A program made the translations under genes and the position numbers. From the NCBI GenBank assembly GCA_032718475.1, contig JAUCBJ010008126.1, forward strand, positions 120,407 through 184,406: a DNA stretch of 64,000 nucleotides, in the 5' to 3' direction. Source of the DNA: Nemertoderma westbladi. Taxonomy: Eukaryota; Animalia; Xenacoelomorpha. The notes under the pieces are model-generated. The model ran no database searches, had not been told where the DNA came from, and saw only the letters and a list, made by a program, of their open reading frames with translations. Shown in pieces: positions 30,619 to 58,906 of this stretch. Every line of letters begins with the position of its first letter. The first letter of the stretch is position 1.

Positions 30619-33600
30619 GTTAATTAAAACAGTCTTTAGCAATATCAACTGGTAATTCTTTATAGATCATGTAGATAATTAGATAATAAGGATCTATCTC
30701 CATCAAATTCAACGAGGTTCTCTGTAGTTAGGTCTACGCAATAAGCTAGTTGCCGTAGTAAAGGATGTAACTAGTGTGATAATTGATATACGTGTAGCAC
30801 TCACTGTCTTATATAATATGTTGGTGGCTATTTTCTTTAGTGACAAAGAAAAATTTTTCACTAAACAGTGGGGAATAATTTTTATTCAAATCATAATGAC
30901 CCCTACCCCCCCCCCCCCCCCCCCCCCCCCCAATGTTTCTTAATAATGGTAATTAATTTCAGATACGAAATGTCCGTGGAAATCTTCAGCGGTGCGGTAT
31001 ATCAACTACACGAGAACGCGCAGCTGCACATGTTGTTAGACCAGGGTGCCACCTGTACCACGCCGCCTACATCAGCCAGGAAACACGCTGGGGAACAACT
31101 CTACAAGTTAGTTGGATAGAAAACACAGCGGCCAGCATACCACCAAAAGGCATTGCCGCACGTCTTTGACGCCACAGATCACGGGAACTGATGACAAAAA
31201 AGAAAAATTTTGTATTGGAAGGGAGCAGGTTGCCCTAACTTCTGTTGTTTTTGCAGACACTTCGGTACTGTGAATGGCTTTCCCACTCAGCATCAGCAAC
31301 CGGCTTCCATAAAACAAAGTCATGCTCCATAGGTTTCTATGTGGTTGCCTGCAGGGTAGAACTGGGTTTTGACAGTGTCAGTGAGATGTTTCTGAGTCTG
31401 GATATAACTAATTCTGTGTTAGATAACAACATGATCCTTATGTGGAGACAATAAGCCGTTTATTACCCGAACTAACACTTCCCCGTAGTATTATTAACCG
31501 CATTTATTGCGGCCCAGAATTTATAGTTTTTTTTTCTCGGCTTTCTTTTTATTACACCGGGGTTAAGGATTAATTGCGTCGAAGCAGCGGCGGGGAGCTC
31601 GTCGTTTATACCCCAACTCTAGCTGGAGATCCCGGGAGGCGCACAACCTCATACTGAAGGGGTTAATTGAAGATTCCCCGATGTGTTTTTATGGAAGCAA
31701 ATATGTTGGTGAGATGGAAGTTGCAGCCTGTTTATACTGGGTACCTACACAACCCAGGATCGCAACCCATTACATGGCAGGAAGTCACTATGAGCCACTC
31801 TACGTCCTGTTTATATGAATAGGTAATACCCACCATGGCTTCTATATCCCCAAAGGTTTTGTTAAGCCCATCTGTCAGAATTTGCTTAGCTTTGTGTTTT
31901 TCTTATAGAATTATATAGTTTATTAGTTGGGAGGTTGTAGGTTATACTTGGCGGCGTCACGGATATATTCAACCTGTTTTTTTTTGCGAAATGAATTAAA
32001 TTATTAACATGAAAAACAAAAATATATTGTAAAATTTATTAGATGCGAAAGTTTGTTTATGCTTTGGTTCCTTTAAAACGATGTCAGATAATTCCATCAA
32101 AATAATCAAAATAAATTCCAAATATAATTTTGGAATAAATTAGTCTGGTACAGAAAAAGGTGAGCCCGGTCGTAGGTGAGTTATTGCAGTGCTTCACAGT
32201 TTACAGTTCAATTCACAGGTGAATTCAAGAATCGGTTTTTGGAGTGAATTGGATGAGTGCACAATTCCATGATGTTGTTATTTTGCGCAACCCTGGTTCA
32301 ACCCCGTGCGACTTATCTTCGTTTTTTGACTCTCAATTAGTTATTTAGCTTAGTATATTGGTTTCTTGCAGGTTCATGATAGATGATAACGTTCAAGGTA
32401 AACCCGATGGAATGAGTTTCTCTTCCACTGGTGACATTAAAGATATTTCCTTCAATATTGTTAACCTTGTCAAATCCAGCTCAGTTACGAGTACAGTGAG
32501 TAATTATTTGCGGTACTTAATTAATAGGCCTAACTACAATTATATGTTATCTTAATTACAAACTTGTTACTTTATTTTTTCTCTTAGTGGCTGTGGGGAA
32601 CATTATTTCAATTATTTAACTTTGGTCTTTTATTGTCTGTATTCCTCAAAACTTCTGAATACTTAACAAATTCCCCTCAAATATTACCTATTTTTTAATC
32701 TATTTGATTATCAATATTACATCCAGTCAGATAGAGATATACGTACACTACAATATGTATATTTCATTCGTCCTAAAATGTATTTCTTTTTTTATTCAGA
32801 AATTATAAATGTATTTATTTATAATATTATAAACAGAAAAATATACTAAAATATATTAATGCCCTAAACTCCTAGTTATAAACTTTAAGCCTTCGCCCCG
32901 TGTTGTTTTGTTACTCGCCCAAGAAATCGAATTTATTCATGATGTCGCACCGCATAGATTGGGGGTGGGGGGGGGGGGGGGGGGGGGCTTTCGACGCAAT
33001 CAATTTTCATTCCTCTCCAGGGGAAAATCGACGCAAGTAACAGCTGATTACTCTTAAAAATATAACTGTAACCTGTTCTATAATGTTTCGTTTATTGTTT
33101 TGGTTATAATAACGTCCCACTGCAACATACTCCATTCTCAAAATGGATAAATTTAACTTTCTCTGGCGAGATATTAATTCTCTGAGAAGGGATTTGCGGT
33201 CAGTCCCCCCTGTATCCCCACTGTATATCGAAACCAATGCATTCAAACAGTAAGGTGTGGCAAACCCATTCAGCACCCAGCACAATATGTACTGTACTTT
33301 GGAGACAGTCGCCCTCATAAATATCACTCAGCCCATACAGTAGGCCTACTGTAGTAGGCCTATGTGTCTATATCTACACTAATAGAACTAACTACATATA
33401 TTTCGAAGTAGCCTACAACAGTAGGCCTACATGCACCATAAAACTAAAAGTATCAGTAAAAACTACTCCTGTAATCATCAATTAGAATGAAACAGCGTAA
33501 GACATCAAACAAAAAGATAATCAAAAACATCTCTAACAATCTAATTAAATTTAGAATCAGAAATCATTCCCAAAATCTAACTGACAAGCTATCCACCTTG

Positions 33601-36600
33601 GCCAGATTAGTTAATTTATCCAAAAATGTATAATTATTGACTATGTTTAGGAATAAATTAATATTTGAAAATAAAGTTGTTTTATATCCCTTACGACCCT
33701 TGACAATTAATAAACCCCATCATTAAACCATTGCTCGTCAATTTATTCATCTCTTATGGTCAGCGGGATATACAGATTTATTTTATATCCACAAGTGACA
33801 TATCATATAAATATATTTTTCTTAAAAAATCAGCATAATATAATTTAGTTAATTTATATATAATTTACTATAACATTTTTACGTAATTTAATTAATTTAT
33901 AAATAACTAACTATATATTTTTGCGTAATTTAATTAATTTATAAATAATTAACTATATATTTTTAATTAATTTAGTTAATTTATAAATAACTAACTATAT
34001 ATTTTTACGTAATTTAGTACGTTCCGCAATGGAGAGAAATTGGCGAGTTTCGAGACAATTCGTTACAACTCTACAGCATAATGTGGCCCGGCGAATCCTA
34101 CATCACACCGACAGGTGGCGCTAATATACAGACACTTAAAGTGGTTGCGAAGAAAACTAAACCATTTATAGAGGTGACTGAACCTGAGTCGCCAGCCATG
34201 TGGGATTGCTACTCCGCTATGCGCTGTCTGGATCCTAAAACACACGATAAAGAGGTTAATTATAGTTACGAGTTGTATATAAATAGGTACTGTACCGGTA
34301 CTGTTAATTAAATTGTACAGAATATCTCAACATGCTGACATGTGTCATGGACTACCTAATATATATCATTACAGCTCTGTTCGTGACGCTAAATCAATGC
34401 TTATTAGAGATGAATTCCACCAACAACAATATTGAAGTCTAGGGGTGTGCCGGATATCCGGCCGGGCCGGAATTCCGGCCGGATTTTGAGGAGATTCCAT
34501 TTTTTGGCCGGATTTTCATTTCAACGAATTGTTGACAAAATTTTCAATTAATGCAAATAACAAAAAAAAAACATCAAAATAAATTTATTTTAAATTCATA
34601 CAAATTTAAACATTAAAGCAAAAATACAAAAGAACACAATACATTTTTTAATTAATATTAATTCATTAATATTATGAATATGATAGGGTCTAAAGCAGAG
34701 CTGTCATTTGATGACTATCTGTGTGCTGAGCTGAGCTGTCTGAATACTTTTTGCCAATAATATTTGTATTTGGTTGGGCTCAGCCTCACTAACACTTATA
34801 ATAAATAGTAGGCCTACATATAGAAAAAGTTTTAATATTTTTGTCTCGGAATTGTCTGGGTCGCCATTATTGTGTCCGGGTAGGAATTTTCCGTATAGTG
34901 TTTCAAAGTACTTATACACCTAACATAAATATGAGCGGATGTCTTGTAAAGTACTACTGTATACTACGTATGTGATACACATAATTTTGAGCAGATGTAC
35001 TGTAAAGTGCTACTTTATACACATAACTATGAGCAGCTGTCTTGTAAAGTGCTACTTTATACACATAATAACTAAGTTGCAGTAAAATCTTAATTCAGAT
35101 TATAGATGATATGTTGAGAGGAATGAAATCTTTTAGAGACCCGAGTCGACACAACATGACAGACAAGGTAAAATGTTGCACTGGCCTCATGGTCGACATG
35201 TTGAAGAGATTCGAACAAGATCTGGATGGTTTCGAGTTCAGCCTCTACATGGTAGAAGGGGAGAAACCTGGTTCATACATAAGTTAGTATTTACTGGTAA
35301 TGTACCGATACTGTACTGTCACTTCAATACTAGTTACCTATTCCCAAATTACTCTATTTTTATCTTCCCTGGTTACTTTTTTCCGAGAGTGTTAATAATC
35401 TCATTATACGTAGCATACTGGTATCAAATATCCTTATAGATGGCAAATGGGATGGTATGATGCAGGATCTGATAGCTGGGACCGCGGACCTTGGGATTGG
35501 AGCTTTCAGCATCACTCACAAACGTAACGAATTCATCGATTTCACCACTCCCTTCTATCACAGCGGGTTTAACATGATGGTAGCCAATCGGAAACCAGAA
35601 CCCGATCGTGACTCATTCCTAAAACCTTTGGACTGGCAGGTTCGTTATCACTCCGTATACTTTTAATAATAGGTTTAATACAATATTTATTGCATGTTGC
35701 CGGGTTTTTTATTATTAGATTTTTATATTTGGTCATAATGAATTTGCGCTACTGGAGTTACAATATTGGAATATTTGTAATAAACTGTAAACAATATTTA
35801 TTTGTTGTGTTTGATAAATTTTTTTGCAATATGATTATTATAAATTAAAATTACCAACAAATTTCCAAACAATAGCCGGTTTTGCGGTTTTAGATGCAAA
35901 AACCTGCAAATAAAATACAATTGGAGACCATTTGTTGCATGCAATCTGTCAGTGATCAGCCAACGGCATTCAGCTAATTGACAGTTTCGTTTCGGCTTTA
36001 TAAAGGAGCTATTAAGGTTGTCTGTATCTAGAAGAGTTCATAGGAAAGAAGAAAAGGATAGACCATACCGCAGGTGTAACTAAGTGAGCGCATGAAGCCG
36101 CACAAACAGCTAAAATTGGCGAGCGCTTGCGAATTATAGGCCAACAATTTAAGCTTTTTAAGAACGGGCGGGTGTGCCTTGCAATTACCGTGACACTCTT
36201 AAACAGCGGATTTTCAACTTAAGTATATCAGAGACCTGTGTGGGGCGAGCGACGAAAGTAAGCGAGCTTAGCATACAGGTACCACTAACTCAATCGGTGT
36301 TTCTGTTGCTCTGTCGTTCTGTTGTTCTGTCGTGTCAAATTTTAAACGTTAAAAACTCAGCCAAATGTTAATGAAATTTACCCAAACTTGGTACACATGT
36401 AGTCTGGCCAAAGTTTAGAAATTTTCCAAGTTGAATTTGCGTGGGGTCTTCGTGCAGCATCTGTGTAACTGTCTTACAGTTATAATAAATTAATCTACCC
36501 AAAAATTATTAGGCTTGGCATCAGCTGGTTGCTAGGAGACTACAGGATTACAGTACGGTACCGGTACTGTTAACTGTTACAGTGGTACAGAGTTACCGGT

Positions 36601-39600
36601 ACCGTCTTCGGTCGTTGGTCGTTTGCAAGGCCATCTAAACAACTTCTTCATCTAAACAGCGTCCGACAGTCCGATGTATCTGGACCCGAGCAGCCGAGTG
36701 GCATCAATATGCGATTAACTGAGGAATAAATACTACGGAATTGCTTGCTTGTCAGTAAGATTATATCTACTGTTCTCCGGGAATAAACCGCAGCTGTCCG
36801 GTGACTACGGACGGATACTGGGATGAGCATGTATTTTGATCGAGTTTCTCGTATTCTCGATTTTCTCGAATTCTCGAAATTTCCTATAAACCACATGGCT
36901 TCGCATATTGAACGTGTGATTGGAAATAAGTTTGTACTACCCTTCCGCCCCTTGGGTGGTAGATGTCGCGGTTATGTATTGGTTGGTAGGAAGGGGGGGG
37001 GGGGGGGGGGGGTGGGTGCAGATTAAAAGGGCTGAACACGTACTGTCCCCCTTTCTTTGATTGATTGTCGGTATGGTTAAATTTCTCAAATACTGATTTT
37101 GTGATACAGTCGCTCAATTTTAATTTGTATCTCATAATTGGGCCTCGTCCTGCGCGAAGTTAAGTTCCACCTTGGTGTAGTGGTTGCATTGAATTCACAT
37201 CTCCTGTAGGTCGTGGGTTCGATCCTCACATGGGCCAGGGCAGTTTTCGTTTCGGCACGAATGCTTCAAAGGGACCAGCCAGGGCGCATCTCTGCCTTGC
37301 ATCCTTAAGTGGTAGCTAAATGAGTACTAGAGTTTCCTCTGGGGAGTAAAGTTCTGGGGTGACCGCACTGGAAATAAGTCGTCAGACTTTGTGCGTAATC
37401 CCTGGCCTAGTGGCCAAAGAAAATTTACTTTACTTTTTACTTTTTTAAGGCCCCACGAACGTGTTATAAAGATGTGAGCGAATCATCTCTACTGACGCCA
37501 TTTCGAACTTCACTTGTTCCTGATGTTGGGCGACACCTTCCTTAGCTGACTGCAAGCAACTTATGCTCTCCAGTTGTTATGACATAACAAAACATAACAT
37601 TTCTAATTATTTTCTTTGTTAATACTGTATCTTAAGACCAAAATAGAGCAGTTGCAAAGTTGTATTCTATTTCTAAAACGTCCGACTTTCTGTCTAACAT
37701 ATAGTTTTGTTATATAGTTTTGTTTTGCCAGCGGTTCGTGATTTAAGTACTCACACACTAAAATTCATTTAAATTGAGTTTTGAGTTTTCAGACGCAGTT
37801 AATTAAGTTCAGTTTTGTATTATTTATAAAGCGAATATGTGAAATAGTTATGACAAACATACTCAACAATGTTAAGGAAACTCTACTGAGTTTCTTATGG
37901 ACAAGGAAGTTCTAATAAATAGCTAATATATTCAATAAAATAAAGTTCACCACTTTTTTTAATATTCTCTTGAATTTTTTTCCGGAATGCAATACGTTTC
38001 GCTAATGCAACAGCTATAAGGGTATTTAACATTCATTACGGGTTAGTTCGGCGCAGCAATATACGGAAACACACGACCGTGGAATTAATCACCAACAAAT
38101 TGTATTCATTAACCGATTCGGACCTATCTGGCTCTGTCCTGACTACAGATTTGATTAAAGATGCGTCAGATGTTGTCCATAATTAATCGCAATCCGATTT
38201 GGTGCCCTGCTAACCAAACGGAGTGTGTGGGTGGCATTCAATCAATAAACCGGCCCACTGATAATATTAAATCGTAATTTATTCGCCGTACTAACTCTTA
38301 ATTCCTTGCTCTCTCTAAATGCCGAGGTCTGTAAACTAATCATTGTTGGGAGGGAATATATAATTACAGATTCCTGATTTACTTGAATTTATATGCATTC
38401 CTTAAAGGAGTTATCACTGCCTAGAGAAAACCCATGGAAGTCGGCGGAGTAATTTTAGTTGATCGAAATTGAATATTTTTGGTTTTCACCACAATATGGC
38501 ATTTACTAAATATTATTATATCGGTTCCCAGTTATTATTGTGCTAATAATTGTATCACCCACCTAAATCACCTTTTGTGACCGACCCTATAATAAACGGC
38601 TTCCTGATAATATTTGATACCGGCAGAATTATTTGTTGGAAATGTGAATTATGTGAACACAGATTGTCTACAAATACAAGCAAAATATCTGAAACGTGAA
38701 ACAAAGCTATAATACACAAACAAACAGACACATTTAGAGCAGCACTGTAGTGAGATTAATAGATGTACCGGTAGTAGATAACAACAATTAACTAATTATT
38801 ATTTCATAAAGTTGATCGCCATTACTAATGTTACATTAATTACGTGACCGTTAATAAATAGGTTTGGTTACTGATATTATGTTCTATCCACTTTGTCGCA
38901 CTCGCCATGACAACCTTCGAATGGGCTAGTCCCTATGGTCTACACCCAGGTGGGCGCAACCGGTCAGCTACTTTCAGTTTACCCTCCGGCCTCACTCACA
39001 CATGGTCACTCTTACTCAACCATTCCTTCCCATCCAAGGTCTGATATCGTCTGTAACAGAGTTACACCCATTGCATCTAACCCAACTATTTTCTCTGGTA
39101 ATGGTTGCATTTTCCTTACCTAATAATTTTGACAATATGCTCAATGATGATGGTAATTAATTAATTAATTAATTAAGTAATTGCATTGCTAAATTGAAAG
39201 TTGAATAGTAACTTTGTTTGTAGTTGTTAATTTATCATAATGGGAAACTATCATAAAACTAACTATTAAAAATCGAGTATCTGTTTTAGTAAAGCAATTA
39301 CTTTTTCACATATCAATAAGGGATGAAGGTATCCTCAAGTCTTGTGCTGTGGTAACGTGCCTGCTGATTTAATTAAACTTATTAACAAACCAATTATTTG
39401 CATTGAGAACATTTACAGGCATGTGTTAATTAACCTTATTATTCCTTCAGCTGTACTTAAAACCCCTTTACTTTTTATTTATTATTTAATAGAAGTCATT
39501 TGCAACCCTAATAAATTATTTGAACTAATTTTTTTACAGGGTGGGATTTATTACTTTTTAATTGTATTCCCATGTGTTGCAAAGTGTCTTTCCTCTTCTT

Positions 39601-41724
39601 ACTGTTACCAAATATATTCGTTAGGTCTGGCTACTTATATTAGTGTCCATACATTGCGTTGCTATGGCAATGGCCGCGTTTGAGTGGATGAGCCCATACG
39701 GTCTGCATCCCTGGGGTCGGAACCGATTGGCTACTTTCAGTTTCCCCTCAGCCCTGACCCACACGTGGTCTCTGCTACTCAGCCACACTTACCCCTCCAA
39801 GGTTTGTCCCCCTTGCTTAGCCGCTTGTCGGATCAATGTTCGCTCAATGTGACGTAATTCTGGTTCCGCCAATATCAATGTTTAGATATTACTACTGCAG
39901 TAGATGATATTTAATTGTTTCATTGTCATTACAATATGATTGTTTAAATGTCGATCTAGAACAGAGAGGGATGGAAAAATGACCAACAATGAAAATAATG
40001 TTTACTATAACATTATTTACCTGAAAGATTGAAAAAGTTTAGGATTGAAATATTATTCATTTATATCAGTGAACGATAAGAAAAATATAATATGGCCATA
40101 AACTATTTGTAATTTTAATTCTGCAAATATAAAGCCTTACTCCAAATGCTGCAGTATTTTTCAGTATAAAATGAGCGAATAGAGCCGCTTCCGCTTTGTA
40201 GGACATTGCTTTCGCCTTGAGGATCAACAAGTTCACAATCTTGTGCTTTGGCGGCCTCTTGGACTGAATAAGCATGGTGGACAGCCAATGAATTTCTTGA
40301 GACGCATCTTAAAGGACACTGGCCTTAACCCTATTACCACTGGGGTGTTTTGACCATTAGCACCAGTGGGGGGGGGGGGGAGGATTCGGCCCCCCACTAT
40401 ATTTTTGTAATCGTCCAATGAAATCCTACAAAATTTGGGCTGTTGGTGAAACAACTATAGATGAACACTACCAAACCTTAAAAAGTTAAAATTTCATAAC
40501 CGGGACTCATAATTTTGATGAAAAATAAAAGTAGTCCCAGGACAAAATTACAAAATTTTTCGTTTTCTAAAAACTAATAGTGTGGCAGTGTTGGCTAGAT
40601 TTAGTAGGCTTTTCAAGACGCTGAATCGAATGTGATTATATTCCATTTCCAAAAATTGAAGTGGATGCTATTTTTCGTGCACCTAAGAAGTGGACGTGGC
40701 ACTTCAAATTTTGAAAAATTAGATATTCAGAAAATGCCCCTAATTTTTTTATTTCAACGCATCTTTATAGGTTTTCTGGGCCGCTGAATTGATTGAATGT
40801 AATATAGAAGCCTGAAGACTTAGTGGTTCGCCATTTTTGGTGCACCAAAATTAGGGCGTGGCACTTCAAATTTTGAAAAATACTAGATTCGGAAAATAAA
40901 CCAAAATGGAATTTTTAACGCATTTATATATGTTTTCTAGACCGCTGAATCGATTGAAAGTAATATAGAAGCCTGAAGACTTAGAGGTTAGCCATTTTTT
41001 GAAATCAAAACTTTAGTGTTTTAACCCGAATAAAGTAATTTTGAAAATTTGAAGTGCCACGCCCTAATTTTGGTGCACCGAAAATTACGTACACCAAGGA
41101 TTTGAGGCTTCTATATTACTTTCAATCGATTCAGCGCTCCAGAAAACCTATAAAAATGCTTTGCAAATCAAAACTTTAGTGTATTTTACGAATCTCGTAT
41201 TTTTCAAAATTTGAAGTGCCACGCCCTAATTTTGGTGCACCAAAAATGGCCAACCACTAAGTCTTCAGGCTTCTATATTACTTTCAATCGATTCAGCGCT
41301 CCAGAAAACCAATAAAAATGCTTCGAAATCAAAACTGTAGTAAATTTTCCGAATAAAGTAATTTTGAAATTTTAAAGTGCCACGCCCTAATTTTTGTACT
41401 CCAAAAATGACGTACCACTACACTTACATACTTGTATAGAGCATTAGAGTGATCCAAACCAATAAAAATGAATAAAAATAGCCCAAACATAATAATTACT
41501 AAATCACGGTGAATGACTTCGTAAAATTCGAAAATTTCAAAAAATTTGGTGCTGGAGACCAAATTTTGAGGTGGCACCCACATCGAAAAGTAGAAATCCA
41601 ATTGCAACGTCGTTTTTTGCAAAAGATGCGGCATTAAATTTGGCTAATTGTCAATAAAAATTGGGCCGGTACGTAATGTGGTTGCATAGTTACAGCAACT
41701 AAAATCTAGGAAGGGGCCGATTCG

Positions 41725-41762
<38 letters not shown>

Positions 41763-44700
41763 AGTGGTAATAGGGTTAAAGATACGGATGATTAAGCAAA
41801 AGTCATGGGTGATAGTGAGTTGTGGAGGCACAATTTAGTCGATAAGCCGGCACAGCATTCTTAATATATATGTAATATATATAACGCAGCTGCAATCATC
41901 CCGATAGAAGTAGTTAAATAAAACAAGGCGGTTTACCCAATTGGCAGCTATTTTAGAAGCAGATGTTTATGTTAGTTTAACAGTAAGTTATTCGGTTATA
42001 CCGGCGTTCACTCTGAACGTATTCTTTCCGATTTTATTGAAACTTACCTGTTTTCAATCGGTGCCGGTCCGCATGTTGCTATTCTCGGCTAGTTTTGCGC
42101 ATTGGTGATAATCGCATGTGTTGCAATTGACCTTTGGTTTGCTAATATATTGTTTATCGGTATTGCTGTTGTTTACCAATCTACTGTATTGCTTGTTTTT
42201 ATATCTACCTTATATCTTCAAACTATATCGTCAGCTCCGTAAGTATTAAATATATTATTATTATTAGTAGAGTACCGGTATTAGTTTGTTAGATTTTGAT
42301 AAACTATAGGTCTACTTTCAATTAATATTTAATATTGCAAGTCATACTTATTTTAGTCTGTAATTGGTCGTTCCTAAACATTGATAAAAATATATTATAA
42401 CTATATTTTTAAAATATATGTTTTTAATATTAAAATCTTAAAAATATAAAAATATATTGATTTTCTGACTCGAATACGAAAATACCATTAAAATATGAAT
42501 CACTTCAATTTAAAACGATTTATTATTTGACCCCCCTAGGCCCCCAAATGCTGGAGTGCTCGGTGGTTAGTCAATGTCTGGGGATGTTTTTCGTTTGTAT
42601 TTATTGCAAGTTACACAGCGAAACTAGCCGCATTCATGGCTGGCTTCTACATTCACACACAGGTGGAAAACATCTATATTTTGGTGGGAGATGTAAGTAT
42701 TGCATTCTAGAAGATTTTACATCTGTTATTGTATATTTTTTATACCAAAATTGCAACACCGGTGTAGTTCAGCAGCGAACGTATTGAAATGCGTTAGTTA
42801 ATAATAGTACACATTACGCATTATAACTTTAGATAGACAACAACATATCAGCACACATTGCATCTTTATATTACAATTAGAGTTGACAGGTATGCCTTCA
42901 CATTGCAGTTCTAGGTGATTAAATTTACAATTAATTACCTGTATTAATTTTGAATACAGTATATTTTTGAACAAAATATTTAAATAGACTAATATAATTA
43001 ATATTAACGGATCAATCATACTATTTAATGAATACGGAATGCGCTTGTTTTATAAAATAATTCCGAGTTTAGTTGGACCAGCATGGCAACTAAGTCGGTG
43101 ATGGGTCATCGAGTATGAAAGTAGTAGTATATCCTGTATTAATTAATTGTGAATCTACACAAAGTTCCAAACGTTCGTATTTTATTAACTATTGATAGTT
43201 GGTTTATTAATTAATAGCTACCAGGCTCCAGTATCATCGACCTTCATTCTATTATATCTGGGCTATTACAGCACTACTAATAGTACAATTCTAGTTAACT
43301 TTCTAATGATTTTTTTAATTAAGGGCAAATATTACTATTATGATTATTTTATCTATTCGTGATTTTTTTAAATTATGAAATGTTCCAAGAAAATATTGAC
43401 ACTATTTTGTCCTATAAATTATAACTCATGTCCTATCATTTCTTATACTTTATTGTTTAATATAATAATTGAATATCGTTGATTTTTCTAGCTTTCCAAA
43501 GATCCGTACAAAGACGGTAGGTTGCGAATAGGTACCGTGACGGGAAGCAGTACAGACAGTTATATTCAACAGAACTTCGAGTTCCTCTACCACTACATGC
43601 AAGAGTACAATAAACCATTAATCAGTGATCTCGTCCAAGGACTCAAGTGAGTACCACTTTATTCATTAAGCACTAAGCCATGGTCTCAAATGAGTACCAC
43701 ATTATTCATTAAGCACTCAGCCATGGTCTCAAGTGAGTACCACATTATTCATTAAGCACTCAGCCATGGTTTCTAGTGAGTACCACATTATTCATTAAGC
43801 ACTCAGCCATGGTTTCTATTGAGTACCATATTATTCATTAAGCACTCAGCCATGGTTTCTAGTGAGTACCACATTATTCATTAAGCACTCAGCCATGGTT
43901 TCTAGTGAGTACCACATTTTTCATTAAGCACTCAGCCATGGTTTCTAATGAGTACCACATTATTCATTAAGCACTCAGCCATAGTTTCTAGTGAGTACCA
44001 CATTATTCATTAAGCACTCAGCCATTGTTTATAGTGAGTACCACATTATTAATTAAGCACTCAGCCATGGTTTCTATTGAGTACCACATTATTCATTAAG
44101 CACTCAGCCATGGTTTCTAGTGAGTACCACATTATTCATTAAGCACTCAGCCATGGTTTCTAGTGAGTACCACATTATTCATTTAGCACTCAGCCATGGT
44201 TTATAGTGAGTACCACATTATTCATTAAGCACTCAGCCATGGTTTCTATTGAGTACCACATTATTCATTAAGCACTCATCCATGGTTTCTAGTGAGTACC
44301 ACATTATTCATTAAGCACTCAGCCATGGTTTCTAGTGAGTACCACATTATTCATTAAGCACTCAGCCATGGTCTCAAATGAGTACCACATTATTCATTAA
44401 GCACTCAGCCATGGTCTCAAGTGAGTACCACATTATTCATTAAGCACTCAGCCATGGTTTCTAGTGAGTACCACATTATTCATTAAGCACTCAGCCATGG
44501 TTTCTATTGAGTACCACATTATTCATTAAGCACTCAGCCATGGTTTCTAGTGAGTACCACATTATTCATTAAGCACTCAGCCATGGTTTCTAGTGAGTAC
44601 CACATTTTTCATTAAGCACTCAGCCATGGTTTCTAATGAGTACCACATTATTCATTAAGCACTCAGCCATAGTTTCTAGTGAGTACCACATTATTCATTA

Positions 44701-46720
44701 AGCACTCAGCCATTGTTTATAGTGAGTACCACATTATTAATTAAGCACTCAGCCATGGTTTCTATTGAGTACCACATTATTCATTAAGCACTCAGCCATG
44801 GTTTCTAGTGAGTACCACATTATTCATTTAGCACTCAGCCATGGTTTATAGTGAGTACCACATTATTCATTAAGCACTCAGCCATGGTTTCTATTGAGTA
44901 CCACATTATTCATTAAGCACTCATCCATGGTTTCTAGTGAGTACCACATTATTCATTAAGCACTCAGCCATGGTTTCTAGTGAGTACCACATTATTCATT
45001 AAGCACTCAGCCATGGTTTCTAGTGAGTACCACATTATTCATTAAGCACTCATCCATGGTTTCTAGTGAGTACCACATTATTCATTAAGCACTCAGCCAT
45101 GGTTTCTAGTGAGTACCACATTATTCATTAAGCACTCAGCCATGGTTTCTAGTGAGTACCACATTATTCATTAAGCACTCAGCCATGGTTTCTAGTGAGT
45201 ACCACATTATTCATTAAGCACTCAGCCATAGTTTCTAGTGAGTACCACATTATTCATTAAGCACTCAGCCATGGTTTCTATTGAGTACCACATTATTCAT
45301 TAAGCACTCAGCCATGGTTTCTAGTGAGTACCACATTATTCATTAAGCACTCGGCCATGGTTTCTAGTGAGTACCACATTATTCATTAAGCACTCAGCCA
45401 TGGTTTCTAGTGAGTACCACATTATTCATTAAGCACTCAGCCATGGTTTCTAGTGAGTACCACATTATTCATTAAGCACTCAGCCATGGTTTCTAGTGAG
45501 TACCACATTATTCATTAAGCACTCAGCCATGGTTTCTATTGAGTACCACATTATTCATTAAGCACTCAGCCATGATTTCTAGTGAGTACCACATTGTTCA
45601 TTAAGCACTCAGCCATGGTTTCTAGTGAATACCACATTATTCATTAAGCACTCAGCCATGGTTTCTAGTGAGTACCACATTATTCATTAAGCACTCAGCC
45701 ATGGTTTCTAGTGAGTACCACATTATTCATTAAGCACTCAGCCATGGTTTCTAGTGAGTACCACATTATTCAGTAAGCACTCAGCCATGGTTTCTAGTGA
45801 GTACCACATTATTCATTAAGCACTCAGCCATGGTTTCTAGTGAGTACCACATTATTCATTAAGCACTCAGCCATGGTTTCTATTGAGTACCACATTATTC
45901 ATTAAGCACTCAGCCATGGTTTCTAGTGAGTACCACATTATTCATTAAGTACTCAGCCATGGTTTCTATTGAGTACCACATTATTCATTAAGCACTCAGC
46001 CATGGTTTCTAGTGAGTACCACATTATTCATTAAGCACTCAGCCATGGTTTATATTGAGTACCACATTATTCAGTAAGCACTCAGCCATGGTTTCTAGTG
46101 AGTACCACATTATTCATTAAGCACTCAGCCATGGTTTCTAGTGAGTACCACATTATTCATTTAGCACTTAGCCATGGTTTCTATTGAGTACCACATTATT
46201 CATTAAGCACTCAGCCATGGTTTCTATTGAGTACCACATTATTCATTAAGCACAGCCATGGTTTCTAGCGAGTACCACATTATTCATTAGCAAAGGCCTT
46301 AACATTTTCTATTTTATTTTGTCTAATTATAATTGTAAATAATTACAAATAAATGATGGAGTCGTTAAAAAATTTTACAGACTCCGAATTCAAAATTCCG
46401 CATTATTTAAACCAAAATGATGGTTTCTTCATTAAAAAATGGGGGGGGGGGGGGGGTATGTTCAATGATTCTTAAAGCTGTGGGACAAAGGAGAGGGAGA
46501 TTTCAAACAATTGAGTGAGATGCATTATTCAGACTGTTGTTATAAATGTAGGAGTAATTGGATACCTTGTCTTGTGTTTCCAGGGGCAACGACAGTCATC
46601 CAAGCACGTTGGATATGTTTATATACGATAATCCAATAATCACGCACGAGGTGGCCACAGATCCCGAGTGTGTTCTACGTTCGGTTGGTGCGCCGTTCGG
46701 TGGTGAGGGTTACGGGATAG
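30468..46720 (+). CDS. NMDA-type ionotropic glutamate receptor, GluN3 (GRIN3)-like; partial multi-exon gene
   Basis: GT-AG exons with compatible phases give the ATD end, S1, M1-M2, M3 and S2. GluN3-like hallmarks: CLDPKT, EWxSPYGLHPxGRNR, PKCW, EVATDPECVLRSVGAPFGGEGYGIG. Orthology not tested. Confidence 0.9.
30963..31106 (+). CDS. iGluR exon (ATD)
   Basis: TTTCAG acceptor; YEMSVEIFSGAV...GEQLY(K); donor AA|GTTAGT; phase 2/2. Confidence 0.75.
32372..32495 (+). CDS. iGluR exon (ATD)
   Basis: TTGCAG acceptor; FMIDDNVQG...FSSTGD...FNIVNL; donor ACA|GTGAGT; phase 2/0. Confidence 0.8.
34018..34254 (+). CDS. iGluR exon (ATD end, start of S1)
   Basis: WREIG...IMWPG...LKVV...PF...CLDPKTHDKE; 237 nt; phase 0/0. 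Confidence 0.88.
34440..34515 (+). mobile_element. Possible hAT-like transposon terminus in an intron
   Basis: TAGGG start followed by clustered CCGG motifs; partner end not found. Confidence 0.35.
35099..35282 (+). CDS. iGluR exon (S1)
   Basis: KCCTGLMVDMLKRFEQDLDGFEFSLYMVEGEKPG; phase 0/1. Confidence 0.9.
35440..35639 (+). CDS. iGluR exon (S1 to pre-M1)
   Basis: GKWDGMMQDLIAGTADL...FSITHKRNEFIDFTTPF...FLKPLDWQ; phase 1/0. Confidence 0.95.
37165..37446 (+). mobile_element. tRNA-derived SINE
   Basis: A-box TGGTGTAGTGG (37173-37183), B-box GGTTCGATCC (37216-37225), central TAAATGAGTAC motif, (TTTAC)n tail. Second partial copy at 30181. Confidence 0.75.
38862..39038 (+). CDS. iGluR M1-M2 pore-loop exon, copy A (Asn at Q/R/N site)
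   Basis: AATAG acceptor; VWLLILCSIHFVALAMTTFEWASPYGLHPGGRNRSATFSLPSGLTHTWSLLLNHSFPSK; AAG|GT donor; 177 nt. Confidence 0.92.
39625..39801 (+). CDS. iGluR M1-M2 pore-loop exon, copy B (Ser at Q/R/N site)
   Basis: GTTAG acceptor; VWLLILVSIHCVAMAMAAFEWMSPYGLHPWGRNRLATFSFPSALTHTWSLLLSHTYPSK; AAG|GT donor; 177 nt. Confidence 0.92.
40232..41915 (+). mobile_element. RTE 3' fragment (same family as 18578-19936) split by a TTAA element
   Basis: 40232-40328 and 41776-41915 together are collinear with ~19715-19935. Confidence 0.8.
40329..41775. mobile_element. piggyBac-like non-autonomous element (TTAA TSD)
   Basis: TIR CCCTATTACCACTGG at both ends; TTAA at 40325-40328 and 41776-41779; internal ~175-180-bp repeats in direct and inverted orientation; no transposase. 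Confidence 0.85.
42540..42692 (+). CDS. iGluR M3 exon
   Basis: APKCWSARWLVNVWGCFSFVFIASYTAKLAAFMAG...; donor GAT|GTAAGT; phase 0/0. Confidence 0.93.
43492..43646 (+). CDS. iGluR exon (S2)
   Basis: LRIGTVTGSSTDSYIQQNFEFLYHYMQEYN...GL(K); donor AA|GTGAGT; phase 0/2. Confidence 0.93.
43635..46290 (+). repeat. 43-bp minisatellite seeded at a 5' splice site, ~61 copies
   Basis: Unit GTGAGTACCACATTATTCATTAAGCACTCAGCCATGGTTTCTA starts at the donor at 43647. Higher-order 688-bp (16-unit) duplication: the GTCTCAAATGAG marker recurs at 43683 and 44371. Confidence 0.97.
46584..46720 (+). CDS. iGluR exon (S2)
   Basis: TTCCAG acceptor; LDMFIYDNPIITHEVATDPECVLRSVGAPFGGEGYGI(G); donor AG|GTGAGT; phase 2/1. 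Confidence 0.93.
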
Positions 46721-48858
46721 GTGAGTCAGCGTTCTACGTTCGGTTGGTGCGCCGTTCGGTGGTGAGGGTTACGGGATAGGTGAGTCAGCGTTCTACGTTC
46801 GGTTGGTGCGCCGTTCGGTGGTGAGGGTTACGGGATAGGTGAGTCAGCGTTCTACGTTCGGTTGGTGCGCCGTTCGGTGGTGAGGGTTACGGGATAGGTG
46901 AGTCAGCGTTCTACGTTCGGTTGGTGCGCCGTTCGGTGGTGAGGGTTACGGGATAGGTGAGTCAGCGTTCTACGTTCGGTTGGTGCGCCGTTCGGTGGTG
47001 AGGGTTACGGGATAAGTGAGTCAGCGTTCTACGTTCGGTTGGTGCGCCGTTCGGTGGTGAGGGTTACGGGATAGGTAAGTCAGCGTTCTACGTTCGGTTG
47101 GTGCGCCGTTCGGTGGTGAGGGTTACGGGATAGGTGAGTCAGCGTTCTACGTTCGGTTGGTGCGCCGTTCGGTGGTGAGGGTTACGGGATAGGTGAGTCA
47201 GCGTTCTACGTTCGGTTGGTGCGCCGTTCGGTGGTGAGGGTTACGGGATAGGTGAGTCAGCGTTCTACGTTCGGTTGGTGCGCCGTTCGGTGGTGAGGGT
47301 TACGGGATAGGTGAGTCAGCGTTCTACGTTCGGTTGGTGCGCCGTTCGGTGGTGAGGGTTACGGGATAGGTGAGTCAGCGTTCTACGTTCGGTTGGTTTG
47401 CCGTTCGGTGGTGAGGGTTACGGGATAGGTGAGTCAGCGTTCTACGTTCGGTTGGTGCGCCGTTCGGTGGTGAGGGTTACGGGATAGGTGAGTCAGCGTT
47501 CTACGTTCGGTTGGTGCGCCGTTCGGTGGTGAGGGTTACGGGATAGGTGAGTCAGCGTTCTACATTTGGTTGGTGCGCCGTTCGGTGGTGAGGGTTACGG
47601 GATAGGTGAGTCAGCGTTCTACGTTTGGTTGGTGCGCCGTTCGGTGGTGAGGGTTACGGGATAGGTGAGTCAGCGTTCTACGTTTGGTTGGTGCGCCGTT
47701 CGGTGGTGAGGGTTACGGGATAGGTGAGTCAGCGTTCTACGTTCGGTTGGTGCGTCGTTCGGTGGTGAGGGTTACGGGATAGGTGAGTCAGCGTTCTACG
47801 TTCGGTTGGTGCGCCGTTCGGTGGTGAGGGTTACGGGATAGGTGAGTCAGCGTTCTACGTTCGGTTAGTGCGCCTTTCGGTGGTGAGGGTTACGGGATAG
47901 GTGAGTCAGCGTTCTACGTTCGGTTGGTGCGCCGTTCGGTGGTGAGGGTTACGGGATAAGTGAGTCAGCGTTCTACGTTCGGTTGGTGCGCCGTTCGGTG
48001 GTGAGGGTTACGGGATAGGTGAGTCAGCGTTCTACGTTCGGTTGGTGCGCCGTTCGGTGGTGAGGGTTACGGGATAAGTGAGTCAGCGTTCTACGTTCGG
48101 TTGGTGCGCCGTTCGGTGGTGAGGGTTACGGGATAGGTAAGTCAGCGTTCTACGTTCGGTTGGTGCGCCGTTCGGTGGTGAGGGTTACGGGATAGGTGAG
48201 TCAGCGTTCTACGTTCGGTTGGTGCGCCGTTCGGTGGTGAGGGTTACGGGATAGGTGAGTCAGCGTTCTACGTTCGGTTGGTTTGCCGTTCGGTGGTGAG
48301 GGTTACGGGATAGGTGAGTCAGCGTTCTACGTTCGGTTGGTGCGCCGTTCGGTGGTGAGGGTTACGGGATAGGTGAGTCAGCGTTCTACGTTCGGTTGGT
48401 GCGCCGTTCGGTGGTGAGGGTTACGGGATAGGTGAGTCAGCGTTCTACATTTGGTTGGTGCGCCGTTCGGTGGTGAGGGTTACGGGATAGGTGAGTCAGC
48501 GTTCTACGTTTGGTTGGTGCGCCGTTCGGTGGTGAGGGTTACGGGATAGGTGAGTCAGCGTTCTACGTTTGGTTGGTGCGCCGTTCGGTGGTGAGGGTTA
48601 CGGGATAGGTGAGTCAGCGTTCTACGTTCGGTTGGTGCGCCGTTCGGTGGTGAGGGTTACGGGATAGGTGAGTCAGCGTTCTACGTTCGGTTGGTGCGCC
48701 GTTCGGTGGTGAGGGTTACGGGATAGGTGAGTCAGCGTTCTACGTTTGGTTGGTGCGCCGTTCGGTGGTGAGGGTTACGGGATAGGTGAGTCAGCGTTCT
48801 ACGTTCGGTTGGTGCGCCGTTCGGTGGTGAGGGTTACGGGATAGGTGAGTCAGCGTTC
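46672..48858 (+). repeat. 59-bp exon-intron junction minisatellite, left block, ~37 copies
   Basis: Unit = last 49 nt of exon 46584-46720 plus the first 10 nt of the intron (GTGAGTCAGC). Confidence 0.98.
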
Positions 48859-51800
48859 TGATAGGATCGTACTGGACTCTATACTGTATAATGGTGGCGG
48901 TCAATATAATAATTATATATAGATATTGTTAATGACGTATGTGCTGGGTTGTCTTACCGGAAGTAGCCTAATCGTTGCCTAATACTTACTGTAAATATAC
49001 TGACTGCATGTAGGCCTTGATAAAGTCAGACCCTTATTTCTGATACCGTTCGTCCGTGTCCAGTTGGACCATTACGCTACACACACACACATCATGGCGC
49101 AGTGTTAACTGAATATTGTGTGGTTAGCTATAAATTTATAAAATGGACGATCAGGTAAACGTCTCGCGTTTAAAGAAAAGCCACACCGGATATAAAGCAA
49201 ATTATTCCAGACTGCGGAATCAACTAAACTCTTTGATCCAGCAAGTAAACGTCCTCGCCCCAGACGAGCGTCCACTGGCATTAACTGACGACATTCAAAG
49301 ACTTAAAGGTATGTTAGAAGTCTCCTCCGAAAAACTTGGAGACTCATTGCAGTTAATGCTCGATAACGATGTCGATTGTACGGTAGAGGAAACTGTGTAC
49401 GATAACATTACAGTTGAACTGACCGGTTTAAGATTGTCCGTGATAAAGATTCTCGGTGAAATCCCGAAACTCCCTACCGGTATACAAAACCCCAACGCGC
49501 AGATAGGAAACGTTACCCAGCACGGAACCGGGATTGGCGTAAAGTCAGACAATGCGCCCCGTGCTACGGTGAATAAACCTCCTATAATCGATCAGGATAT
49601 CGATATTAAACGGTTTAATCGTTGGCGAGTTTCATGGTGTAATTACGCCAAGATTATAAAACTACAACTTCAGCCAAGAGACGAACAGATCTCCGCATTC
49701 TTCGGATACTGCAGCCCTGCGTTACTTTCTAAACTGCAGTACGTCGTCGAGATACCACAGAACACGGTATTAACCCTTGAGGAAGTGTTCGACAAATTCG
49801 AAAACTATCTAAAAGGGAGGCAAAATATTGCACTCGACAGATGGGAACTCACAACGTGTAAACAACAAGAATGCGAAACATTCGACAATTATTATACTCG
49901 ATTGTGCGAAATGGCTGAGACTGCGGGTCTTCGCGGGATGCGAGAAGACGAGTGGATATCAACGTTGATTACAGTGGGAATAAACGACGAGGAGATCCGG
50001 CAAGATCTCCTCGCGAAGTCCCCAGCACTGGACCATAAAGAAACAGTACTCTTCTGTCGCAGTGAAGAGGCTGCGCGAAGCCACTTAAGGAGAATGAAAA
50101 TCTCGAGATCTGAAAGTTCAGATTATTCCTCAGCGGCGGCTACGAGCGAGACATCGAGATCACGTCAGCGTTGTAATAATAAGGGATATCAATTCCGAAA
50201 AAGATCGCAATCTAGAAACCAACAGTCTAACGACGATAAATGTATGCGTTGTGGCTATGACAAACACGGGCAGGGTAAATTCTGCCCAGCACAGGGTAAA
50301 ACGTGCAGCAAATGTAAAAAACGAAACCATTTTGCCCAAGTTTGCACATCTAAAGTGAATAAATCCGCAGCAGTTGTGAGTAATGACAGTACATCTGCTG
50401 CTATCCATGTGGCATCTTGCGTTTTTAATAAACGATGTGCAGTTGAAGTGAATTTGTCCTATGATGGACAGCACTGTTGCCAAATGGATGCAATCCCAGA
50501 TACAGGCTCAGATCGTACTGTATGTGGAGTACAATTAGCTGATAAGTTGAAAATTGACATATCCAATTTTCTAGAACCGTCTAGTGACAACTTATTGAAC
50601 ATAAATGGTAATTCTATTAAACAAATAGGACAACTCTCCTTATTAATAAAACTAGAAGGGCAAGAAATCAGAGATGTCATTACTGTATGTGAAGGTGTGA
50701 CGTCACTATATTTGTCATTGAAAGTGTGCAAAGCATTACGTCTAATCCATGAAAACTGGCCCAAACCACTTCCCCCAATTTATTTTGGTCAGGAATTAAA
50801 TTATCAGAGTTGTTCACTTAAAACACAAGTTGATAAAATTAAAGTTGTGTTCAAACAGAGAGAACGGGAAAATTGGATTTTAAATTTACCAGAAAATCCA
50901 TCTGATAATGAGAAAGGGGAAGTACACAGAAAACTGTCATCAGTTTACTGTTCGGTTTTCGACTGCAAAACGGAATTAAAAACAATGTGTGGGAAAACTA
51001 TTGGTGATCCTATGAAAATTGAACTGAAAGAAAATTTTACACCTTTTGCAATTCATGCGGCGAGAAAAATTCCTTTTGCAAAACGAAATGAAGTAAAAAC
51101 TGAACTCGATTATCTTGTAGAGAAGGGTATAATCGAGCCAGTGGGAGATCGGCCAACAGAGTGGTGCCACCCTTTAGTTGTGGCACCCAAACCGGACGGT
51201 GGTATCAGAGTGTGTGTAGACTTGACAAATTTAAATAAACAAGTCAAACGGGTAGTACACCCGAGTAATTCACCCTATGAAGTCGTGTCGGAAATCGCCC
51301 CAGAATCCAAATATTTTACAACTTTGGACGCAAAAACTGCTTATTGGCAAGTTTTATTGGATCCAGCAGCCCGCGACTTAACTTGTTTCATAACACCATG
51401 GGGACGGTTTATATTCAACCGAGCTCCAATGGGTTACATAAGTACGGGTGACTCATATAATCTACGTGCTGATATGGCGCTAAGAGGTATAGACAATATT
51501 CATAAGCTGGTAGACGGCATGGTAATTGCAGATAAAGATTTTAAATCCCATGTTGGCCGTATTTGTGAAGTTCTAGAACGTTGTGCTCAGTATAATATCA
51601 CCATTCATCCCAATAAATTTAATTTCGCACTGTGCGAAGTTAAATTTGGTGGGTATATTGTATCACAGGAAGGTACGAAGGCTGATCCCGAAAAAATCAG
51701 CGCTATAACTAACTTTCCTGCTCCCACCAATCGCACTGAACTACGTTCTTTTATGGGCCTAGTTCAACAACTAGCGCGATTCTCAAATGAAATAAGTGAA

Positions 51801-54032
51801 ATGGCTTGTCCTTTACGCGATCTCTTGAAAGTTAAAAACGCATATAGTTGGACAGCCAATCACGAACTAGCATTTGAAAATGTTAAAAAGGCGCTGGCAA
51901 TCCCACCCATTCTTGCCCCATTCGATAAAAACGCAAAACTACAATTAGAAACGGATGCATCCAGAACCAAAGGTTTAGGGTTTGCATTATTGCAGAAACG
52001 AGAAGTTGATCAGGAATGGCATTTAATACAATGTGGGTCGAGATTTTTGAAAGACTGTGAAACGCGGTACGCGGTAATTGAGTTGGAAGCCCTAGCAATT
52101 CAATGGGCCATTACGAAATGTCGAATTTATTTGTATGGTCAACCGCATTTTACAGTGGTGACAGATCACCGCCCCCTTTTACCTATTATGAACACTCAGA
52201 CACTCGATGTAATTGAGAATATGAGACTACAAAATCTCAAAATGAAACTTAGTGGGTACAATTTTACAGTGGAGTGGAAAACGGGAAAGCAGCATTACAT
52301 TCCCGATGCACTTTCGCGAGCACCTGTATCAGATCCTTCGCCCGAAAATGACGAAGACCCAGATGCAACTAAGTATGTGATTGCGGCACTTTTTCAGGCT
52401 GCATCAGAAAAAATTAATAACGAAATATGTGATAGTTATAAATATTCACCGTACAAAGACCCATTACTGGAGAAGCTGCGAAATGTTTCTCGTTATGATA
52501 AGGATTATCAGGCCTTAATCACAGCAATTAACGGCGACTTCGAACCCACAGTGGTTGGAAATCCGTTGGTTCAGCAGTTAAAAAAATTGTGGAATGAACT
52601 GGGTGTAGAAGATGGGATTGTGCTGTTTGGACGTCGCATGGTGATTCCTAAAGAAGCCCGTGCAGACATCTTGACTAAACTGCATGATGCCCATCAAGGT
52701 ATAGAGCGCACTAAAAGACGCGCTAGGGAGTCTGTATATTGGCCAGGAATCAATAATGAAATTGAGATTTTAGTTCAATCCTGTGAAAAGTGCCAATACC
52801 GACTCCCGAGTAATGTGAAAGAACCATGTTTATCGGACCCGACACCCTCGAGAGTTTTCGAGTCCGTTTCATCCGACTTGTTTGACTTTGCGGGTCATGC
52901 ATATTTAGTATATGTAGACAGATTATCTGGATTTCCCTTTGTCACACGGTGGCATAGTGACCCGACAGCACAACAAGTTATTGCAAAATTGCATCAGTAT
53001 TTCGCTCAAACCGGCGTTCCTGTACGTATACGAACTGATAATGGCCCACAGTATAACTCACAAGTTTTTAAAGACTTTTTAGAACGTTGGGGGGTTGCTA
53101 GGGTGCCCTCAACGCCGTATTATCCACAGTCGAATGGCCATGCGGAGGTCTCAGTAAAAATTGTAAAAAGTCTAGTGGCAAAAGCGGATGATGGGCGAAT
53201 TGATTCGGAAATATTTACTCGGGGTATTCTAGAACTACGCAACACACCCCGTATTGATGGTCGTTCTCCAGCGCAGATTGTGTACGGCCATCCACTTCGG
53301 TCACAACTGCCTCTCCATTATCGTGCATTCGATAAGACCTGGCAAACCGAAGCAAAAACGGCTGACGAAGTTGCTTGGCGTGCATCTAAGACCGCGCAGC
53401 TTTACTATGACAGAAACGCACGTGCTTTACCGAAATTGGACCCTGGAACCAAGGTGCTTATCCAGAACCCTGGAACAAAGCGCTGGTCAAAGACCGGCGT
53501 TGTAGTGGAAAGGGGAAGTAGGCGGGATTATCAACTCAAACTCCCATCTGGACGAGTTTATCGCCGAAACAGAAGGTTTCTCCGTCCTCTATTTCAACCG
53601 GACAGACGAGAACCTCCAAACAACCCTACAAACAATATCCCATATCCACCCACTACATTATTGACTGAAGTCGAACCGAAAGTGAAATCTATTCTACGAC
53701 GTAGCACAAGGAAGATCAAACCGGTGGTACGATTCACGGCTTAATTGAAATTGTTTCAGTTTCTCAAGCTGCCAATCTCAATCTCGGTAAGGGAGATGAT
53801 AGGATCGTACTGGACTCTATACTGTATAATGGTGGCGGTCAATATAATAATTATATATAGATATTGTTAATGACGTATGTGCTGGGTTGTCTTACCGGAA
53901 GTAGCCTAATCGTTGCCTAATACTTACTGTAAATATACTGACTGCATGTAGGCCTTGATAAAGTCAGACCCTTATTTCTGATACCGTTCGTCCGTGTCCA
54001 GTTGGACCATTACGCTACACACACACACATCA
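48859..54032 (+). mobile_element. Full-length Ty3/Gypsy LTR retrotransposon (Mag-like)
   Basis: 236-bp TG..CA LTRs at 48859-49094 and 53797-54032, identical by eye. TSD CGTTC (48854-48858, 54033-54037). PBS TGGCGCAG at 49095; PPT AAGGGAGA at 53789-53796. Confidence 0.97.
49143..53744 (+). CDS. Gag-Pol polyprotein, 1533 aa (two zinc knuckles, protease, RT, RNase H, integrase)
   Basis: CMRCG..H...C and CSKC...H....C, PDTGS, RVCVDL, LVDG (RT site altered), TDAS, HHCC, RTDNG, NGHAE; Gypsy domain order. Confidence 0.95.
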   Translation: MDDQVNVSRLKKSHTGYKANYSRLRNQLNSLIQQVNVLAPDERPLALTDDIQRLKGMLEVSSEKLGDSLQLMLDNDVDCTVEETVYDNITVELTGLRLSVIKILGEIPKLPTGIQNPNAQIGNVTQHGTGIGVKSDNAPRATVNKPPIIDQDIDIKRFNRWRVSWCNYAKIIKLQLQPRDEQISAFFGYCSPALLSKLQYVVEIPQNTVLTLEEVFDKFENYLKGRQNIALDRWELTTCKQQECETFDNYYTRLCEMAETAGLRGMREDEWISTLITVGINDEEIRQDLLAKSPALDHKETVLFCRSEEAARSHLRRMKISRSESSDYSSAAATSETSRSRQRCNNKGYQFRKRSQSRNQQSNDDKCMRCGYDKHGQGKFCPAQGKTCSKCKKRNHFAQVCTSKVNKSAAVVSNDSTSAAIHVASCVFNKRCAVEVNLSYDGQHCCQMDAIPDTGSDRTVCGVQLADKLKIDISNFLEPSSDNLLNINGNSIKQIGQLSLLIKLEGQEIRDVITVCEGVTSLYLSLKVCKALRLIHENWPKPLPPIYFGQELNYQSCSLKTQVDKIKVVFKQRERENWILNLPENPSDNEKGEVHRKLSSVYCSVFDCKTELKTMCGKTIGDPMKIELKENFTPFAIHAARKIPFAKRNEVKTELDYLVEKGIIEPVGDRPTEWCHPLVVAPKPDGGIRVCVDLTNLNKQVKRVVHPSNSPYEVVSEIAPESKYFTTLDAKTAYWQVLLDPAARDLTCFITPWGRFIFNRAPMGYISTGDSYNLRADMALRGIDNIHKLVDGMVIADKDFKSHVGRICEVLERCAQYNITIHPNKFNFALCEVKFGGYIVSQEGTKADPEKISAITNFPAPTNRTELRSFMGLVQQLARFSNEISEMACPLRDLLKVKNAYSWTANHELAFENVKKALAIPPILAPFDKNAKLQLETDASRTKGLGFALLQKREVDQEWHLIQCGSRFLKDCETRYAVIELEALAIQWAITKCRIYLYGQPHFTVVTDHRPLLPIMNTQTLDVIENMRLQNLKMKLSGYNFTVEWKTGKQHYIPDALSRAPVSDPSPENDEDPDATKYVIAALFQAASEKINNEICDSYKYSPYKDPLLEKLRNVSRYDKDYQALITAINGDFEPTVVGNPLVQQLKKLWNELGVEDGIVLFGRRMVIPKEARADILTKLHDAHQGIERTKRRARESVYWPGINNEIEILVQSCEKCQYRLPSNVKEPCLSDPTPSRVFESVSSDLFDFAGHAYLVYVDRLSGFPFVTRWHSDPTAQQVIAKLHQYFAQTGVPVRIRTDNGPQYNSQVFKDFLERWGVARVPSTPYYPQSNGHAEVSVKIVKSLVAKADDGRIDSEIFTRGILELRNTPRIDGRSPAQIVYGHPLRSQLPLHYRAFDKTWQTEAKTADEVAWRASKTAQLYYDRNARALPKLDPGTKVLIQNPGTKRWSKTGVVVERGSRRDYQLKLPSGRVYRRNRRFLRPLFQPDRREPPNNPTNNIPYPPTTLLTEVEPKVKSILRRSTRKIKPVVRFTA

Positions 54033-58567: not shown

Positions 58568-58906
58568 TGTAATGTTCGCTATACAGCGAATCATGAAAGG
58601 GTAAACTACCCATCCAGATGTCTGACTGAAAGAGGGGAATCCGCTATACAGCAGTAACTTCCATGTATATTCAAAACTAAGAATAGCATATATATATTTT
58701 GAATCTCCCGCCACCATTGGATATCTTAGATCGACTATAACAACTCTCCTTTTTTAGAGATACAAATTGGATCTGGACGCCTAGACTAAATAACCTATGA
58801 ATGTATCTTAAACTCAATATTATACACTTATACATAATATCATAATACACTTTGCACTGTATAATAATGTCCTAGTTCCTTTTTTTGAGATTCATTTGTG
58901 ATGAAT

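Follow-up and report, generated by a model that had tools for sequence, protein, structure and literature searches.

Tandem M1-M2 exons in a GluN3-type receptor gene of Nemertoderma westbladi: a candidate splice choice between a serine and an asparagine selectivity filter

A 64,000-nucleotide (nt) stretch of the genome of the xenacoelomorph Nemertoderma westbladi (GenBank assembly GCA_032718475.1, contig JAUCBJ010008126.1, positions 120,407 to 184,406 of the forward strand; hereafter the window) carries exons of a gene for an ionotropic glutamate receptor (iGluR) subunit of the NMDA (N-methyl-D-aspartate) family. Two adjacent, homologous exons of this gene, designated exon A and exon B, each encode the M1 helix, the following loop and the M2 pore loop, and differ at the N site of the pore tip. 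The N site determines both properties that characterize NMDA receptors, namely the flow of Ca2+ and a Mg2+ block that depends on voltage. The pair is composed of the following elements.

38862-39038, plus strand: exon A (M1, loop, M2 pore loop), the likely derived copy, with Asn-His-Ser-Phe at positions N to N+3 and a Lig_chan match (3e-6)
39018-39020, plus strand: N-site codon of exon A, AAC (Asn)
39039-39624, plus strand: intron separating exons A and B, 586 nt, 29% GC, with a final AG-free stretch of 40 nt
39625-39801, plus strand: exon B (M1, loop, M2 pore loop), the likely ancestral-type copy, with Ser-His-Thr-Tyr at positions N to N+3
39781-39783, plus strand: N-site codon of exon B, AGC (Ser)

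Both exons are 177 nt long, of phase 0/0 and free of stop codons, with AG before and GT after. They are identical in 46 of 59 residues (124 of 177 bases), and 29 of the 46 identical residues are encoded by synonymously differing codons. Our reanalysis agrees with the initial annotation of this DNA on the coordinates, lengths, splice sites, absence of stops and N-site codons of the pair, and on both of these counts. Identity by codon position is 50/59, 52/59 and 22/59 for the first, second and third positions, respectively. The similarity is limited to the exons and a few splice-site bases: a repeat finder returned one 185-nt pair (38859-39043 and 39622-39806, 71%), and the 500-nt flanks align no better than shuffled sequences, the observed scores being reached by 38/200 and 51/200 shuffles. 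The intron flanks are thus unrelated, as had been noted. No third M1-M2 copy exists in the window, according to both a tblastn search with the exons and a profile built from homologs only (exon A, 74.3 bits; exon B, 80.4 bits; next best, -3.8 bits). The two exons are equal in length and phase, adjacent, homologous and equipped with intact splice sites, which is the configuration by which tandemly duplicated, mutually exclusive exons are recognized.

A Nei-Gojobori comparison of the two exons, which the initial annotation had suggested in the form of dN/dS, gives a proportion of synonymous differences (pS) of 0.82, that is, saturated, and a proportion of non-synonymous differences (pN) of only 0.127 (Fisher p = 4e-17). 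The saturated synonymous difference implies an old duplication. Among 84 distinct homolog segments of invertebrate type, 15 columns reach 90% conservation or more; both copies keep every one of them, for which the chance is 0.013 given 13 random differences. In simulations of a neutrally evolving copy (4000 runs, with an indel rate assumed to be 10% of the substitution rate), a copy both intact and this similar was obtained in about 5% of runs at 0.1 substitutions per site and in 0.5% at 0.15. These comparisons indicate that both copies have been under selection through most of their history, in line with the earlier proposal of an old duplication with both copies selected. The saturation bears equally on the idea that the copies are alleles, or paralogs joined by misassembly, which might come to mind for a window rich in repeats and satellites. 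However, alleles would not differ at 82% of synonymous sites, and a collapsed or joined haplotype would have doubled the introns too, whereas the flanks are unrelated and the neighbouring exons single. We give this explanation next to no weight.

Around the pair we modelled the exons listed below, which join in frame and without stop codons when combined with either A or B. The annotation of one exon on each side of the pair was accurate.

30963-31106, plus strand: tentative amino-terminal domain exon, splicing in frame, without a homolog match
32372-32495, plus strand: amino-terminal domain exon, with weak homolog matches (E-value 0.02-0.06)
34018-34286, plus strand: exon covering the last part of the amino-terminal domain and the beginning of S1, splicing in frame
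35137-35282, plus strand: S1 exon, splicing in frame
35440-35639, plus strand: single upstream exon, end of S1 and pre-M1 (GluN3A 611-676), ending in phase 0
42540-42692, plus strand: single downstream exon, M3 (GluN3A 736 onward), starting in phase 0, its gate motif with Lys for the usual Asn
43492-43646, plus strand: first S2 exon, with Thr at a ligand-selectivity position where GluN3A has Ala
46584-46720, plus strand: second S2 exon, beyond which no further exon of the gene was found in the window

The M4 segment and the C-terminus were not found within the window. Among solved structures, GluN3A is the best match for all six exons tested, clearly so for A, B, the M3 exon and both S2 exons, and marginally for the S1 exon. 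Exon A matches GluN3A with an E-value of 3.5e-10 (GluN1, 0.11), exon B with 4.4e-11 (GluN1, 0.4) and the M3 exon with 1.2e-7 (GluN2A, 4.2e-5), while the S1 exon gives a near tie (GluN3A, 4.8e-10; GluN1, 6.1e-10). On this evidence the gene encodes a subunit of the GluN3 (NMDA3) type, so that the NMDA-type assignment of the initial annotation stands and is sharpened. The register with GluN3A is gapless: the upstream exon covers residues 611-676, either A or B covers 677-735, and the M3 exon continues from 736. There is consequently one protein slot for two exons. In an ungapped alignment, exon position 53 falls on G729 of GluN3A, which corroborates its earlier identification as the N site. By its best structure match and its gapless M1-M2-M3 register, the gene resembles vertebrate GluN3A and GluN3B and the invertebrate NMDA3 class, the subject of PMC6307864 and PMC2974739.

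In an unrooted quick tree of 27 rows, built without a GluN1 or GluN2 outgroup and after 11 short, partial or redundant rows had been left out, the window protein stands beside its relative P0003 (Shimodaira-Hasegawa-like approximate likelihood ratio test, SH-aLRT, 91) and near hemichordate and echinoderm NMDA 3-like rows (82). The 16-row group of this unrooted tree that holds the window protein (SH-aLRT 99) also includes amphioxus, arthropod, annelid and mollusc rows and no vertebrate row. The GluN3-like proteins appear to form two groups in the unrooted tree (SH-aLRT 99); each group contains a hemichordate and an amphioxus gene, and vertebrates are represented in one only.

In an iGluR, a second M1 helix would flip M3 and S2 to the incorrect face of the membrane; a single M1-M2 copy per mRNA would for this reason be expected. 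Given this and the one slot in the GluN3A register, mutually exclusive use of exons A and B, as first put forward in the initial annotation, is the best reading of the locus and in our judgement quite a probable one. Several points tell against it. The splice choice itself is deduced from genomic DNA. Inclusion of both copies, or of neither, preserves the frame without stop codons (514 and 396 residues over the modelled exons), hence nonsense-mediated decay would not enforce the choice. The 586-nt intron exhibits no sign of a distant branch point, its last AG-free stretch being 40 nt, and in a single-genome scan of low power, with 6 shuffles, the only docking-site candidate to exceed the shuffles was a poly-G tract within a repeat element. 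A branch-point-like motif about 42 nt past the exon A donor was considered as a means of steric exclusion and rejected, since many AGs lie between the motif and exon B. Exclusion would then be kept by protein quality control or by regulated splice-site competition, which is our default guess.

The same facts would suit a gene in which both exons are included, or both skipped, and in which a non-channel or dominant-negative product is the main use of the second copy: the products are in frame and free of stops, and an intron of 586 nt poses no steric bar. However, two diverged M1-M2 units occur in no homolog examined, multiple copies being present only as near-exact partial repeats in P0001 and P0002, and if the product lacked a pore, selection acting at each conserved pore position in the two copies would be hard to account for. 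Such a use is very unlikely.

A profile of exons A and B returned 145 proteins, in 118 of which the N site could be scored; the 27 unscored representatives are mostly fragments ending before the tip, or repetitive junk. The scored representatives carry Gly (71), Ser (33), Met (6), Ala (3), Gln (2), Arg (2) or Leu (1) at the N site, and none carries Asn. Asn is likewise absent from the 150 scored among 164 further proteins, mostly vertebrate, and from 147 distinct ungapped GluN3-type segments. The vertebrate GluN3 tip reads Gly-Arg, whereas invertebrate relatives exhibit mostly Ser-His or Gly-His, with Asn in none scored. If absence of Asn from the N site is taken as a mark of the GluN3 class, exon B conforms with its Ser and exon A departs. 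The closest relative, P0003, carries the tip of exon B exactly (Ser-His-Thr-Tyr), and 125 of the 147 segments are nearer to exon B than to exon A, with 10 nearer to A. An exon tree of 59 columns places A and B as sisters (SH-aLRT 94), with branch lengths of 0.36 for A and 0 for B. The four pore-tip columns, chosen after looking, hold 3 of the 13 differences between the copies (p = 0.03). It is likely from these patterns that exon B is of the ancestral type with Ser, and that exon A is derived and gained Asn, the residue found at the N site of GluN1 and GluN2. Measured against P0003, the quicker evolution of exon A lacks significance (5 versus 1, p = 0.22), which weighs on the opposing side.

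The same asymmetry might be explained if one copy, most likely exon A, was long used but is now silent or rarely spliced and starting to decay. Exon A holds most of the change, which could reflect relaxed selection, and has the weaker acceptor, with a pyrimidine tract of 7/17 compared with 10/17 for exon B. Three of its residues (the N-site Asn, Cys7 and Ala22) are seen rarely or never in the 147 homolog segments. Moreover, a recent silencing could be traceless: the simulated neutral copy was still intact in about 55% of runs at 0.02 substitutions per site and in about 25% at 0.05. On the other side, exon A has kept all 15 conserved columns (p = 0.013), its Leu14, Thr17, Ser35 and Leu40 are common among homologs, and its GC content at third codon positions (0.53) equals that of the constitutive exons (0.52), compared with 0.29-0.38 GC in the introns. 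We consider a recent silencing of one copy unlikely.

As the initial annotation remarked, the AAC and AGC codons differ in the way that A-to-G editing would change them. This is true of the codon letters. If Ser is ancestral and Asn derived, though, the codon change was likely from G to A, the reverse of editing. Nor did an editing duplex rise above shuffles: in the three regions scanned, 6, 4 and 7 of 20 shuffles did as well as the best intronic complements of the exon A tip, 35640-37361 and 40321-42539 lying outside the scan. The likeness to A-to-I editing is probably a coincidence.

The search of related sequences for both exons, another suggestion of the initial annotation, did not recover the pair: among 30 homologs looked up, none of the 15 multi-member clusters contains two M1-M2 versions of one gene. 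Word-index searches with single exons gave no homologs, and an atlas search gave no usable match for exon B and only generic ligand-domain clusters for the S1 exon. One metagenome locus (L001, the single locus from 117 stretches) was dismissed as a chance match, being bacterial-type DNA of 62% GC with no other exon nearby.

The closest parallel is the sodium leak channel NALCN, with its exons 15a/15b and 31a/31b (Senatore et al. 2013, PMC3557258, in excerpt). There too, tandemly duplicated exons over a re-entrant pore loop swap one filter residue in invertebrates. In contrast with the window gene, NALCN is a four-domain channel and not an iGluR, and the use of its exons was demonstrated by cDNA and is conserved across several phyla, whereas the window pair is known from the DNA of one genome. 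The pair looks lineage-restricted, without the cross-species support that NALCN has, and this weakens the case for a functional switch. AMPA receptors offer a second comparison: excerpts of PMC8257547 describe mutually exclusive iGluR exons (flip/flop) and post-transcriptional control of the Q/R/N site. Unlike the window exons, flip/flop sits in S2 and tunes gating, and the Q/R residue is altered by A-to-I editing and not by exon choice. For human GRIN3A and GRIN3B, the part of PMC8257547 that treats them reports no relevant alternative splicing, with low coverage of GRIN3B. The initial annotation knew of no pore-loop exon switch in iGluRs. We found no published case in the NMDA family, within an open-licence literature from which most subscription journals are absent; as a general principle, filter-swapping exons are already in print for NALCN (PMC3557258). 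From this comparison, filter swapping by tandem exons is a known device and its occurrence in the NMDA family appears new.

Taking these elements together, we favour, with reasonable though far from complete confidence, an explanation in which two intact tandem M1-M2 exons are spliced singly, to give a subunit with either a Ser filter (exon B) or an Asn filter (exon A), the latter predicted to allow more Ca2+ flow and to add Mg2+ block. The M1-M2 exon would have been duplicated within the lineage of this GluN3-type gene; exon B would have stayed near the ancestral sequence, and exon A would have diverged, in part at the pore tip. The subunit would pair with a GluN1, and the exon A isoform is predicted to exhibit more Ca2+ permeation and Mg2+ block than the exon B isoform. 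According to an excerpt of PMC2974739, replacing the N-site Gly of GluN3B by Asn rescued Ca2+ permeability and conferred Mg2+ block. In a placozoan iGluR with a natural N-site Ser, that Ser lowers Ca2+ flow and its replacement by Asn raised the flow about 3-fold (excerpt of PMC12226733).

The copies may instead be spliced singly with an Asn/Ser exchange that barely alters ion selectivity, in which case M1 and the intracellular loop would make the isoforms differ in how they gate, assemble or traffic, or there would be scarcely any difference between them. Ten of the 13 differences lie outside the pore tip and might matter equally. The N site varies freely in GluN3-type proteins (G, S, M, A, Q, R, L), so that a change there need not be adaptive. 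Earlier Asn mutants of GluN3A or GluN3B left Mg2+ block unaffected, as reviewed in PMC2974739, and by the same partial source the Ca2+ gain of the GluN3B Asn mutant hinged on the N+1 residue, which is His in both window exons. These points count against a strong effect on the filter. Opposed to them are the shifts in permeation of the GluN3B and placozoan mutants, and the fact that the Asn of exon A is unseen in 147 segments and accompanied by two further tip changes. A pair of isoforms with little difference in selectivity is, we think, also improbable.

Some further features of the locus and its relatives deserve mention. The Lys in the M3 gate motif of the window gene contrasts with Asn in 222 of the fetched homologs, Lys being found in 4 and His in 1; the acoel protein P0014 likewise has Lys. 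A 59-bp satellite (window 46672-58569, in runs of 37 and 77 copies) has as its unit the 3' end of exon 46584-46720 with its donor, which gives some 114 repetitions of this exon end and its GT. Similarly, a 43-bp satellite (43646-46289, 61 copies) begins where exon 43492-43646 has its donor. The 59-bp satellite is broken up by a Ty3/gypsy-like retrotransposon whose ends match (48860-54030); a second such element occupies about 59500-63700 on the minus strand. Between exon B and the M3 exon, the intron holds an element (40325-41775) that has inverted repeats at its termini and inverted 162-bp arrays inside. In P0001, an M1 fragment of a related gene is repeated 23 times in tandem. In Owenia fusiformis, the predicted proteins P0036 and P0268 of a related GluN3-like gene differ in residues 682-725 only, which correspond to the first S2 exon. 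These two versions may be a mutually exclusive pair, here in the ligand-binding domain, whose exchange would alter selectivity positions; the window has a single copy of this exon.

The first S2 exon of the window gene exhibits Ser at position 653 and Thr at position 655, where GluN3A has Ala, in a GluA2 numbering whose register is our own and is offered as a lead only. The determinants of glycine binding would be Ser at 653 together with a non-polar residue at 655. Thr at this selectivity position occurs in none of the homologs listed. Thr655 has been tied to glutamate binding (excerpt of PMC6307864). It is conceivable, if doubtful, that a subunit of the GluN3 lineage has re-evolved GluN2-like features, namely a Thr where selectivity for glutamate is determined and an Asn filter exon that splicing may include or not. 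The gene would then yield, by splicing, an atypical receptor insensitive to Mg2+ in one form and, in the other, a conventional coincidence detector that is permeable to Ca2+ and blocked by Mg2+.

In vertebrates, Ca2+ flow and Mg2+ block are tuned by subunit choice (GluN2 or GluN3), and AMPA and kainate receptors use editing. Tuning of the N site by exon choice, if true, would be a third route in this family and the first N-site splice switch in the NMDA family. The window gene also brings to attention a second, under-studied invertebrate GluN3 lineage. A natural Asn-bearing GluN3 pore beside its Ser-bearing twin would provide a ready pair for the disputed role of the GluN3 N site in permeation.

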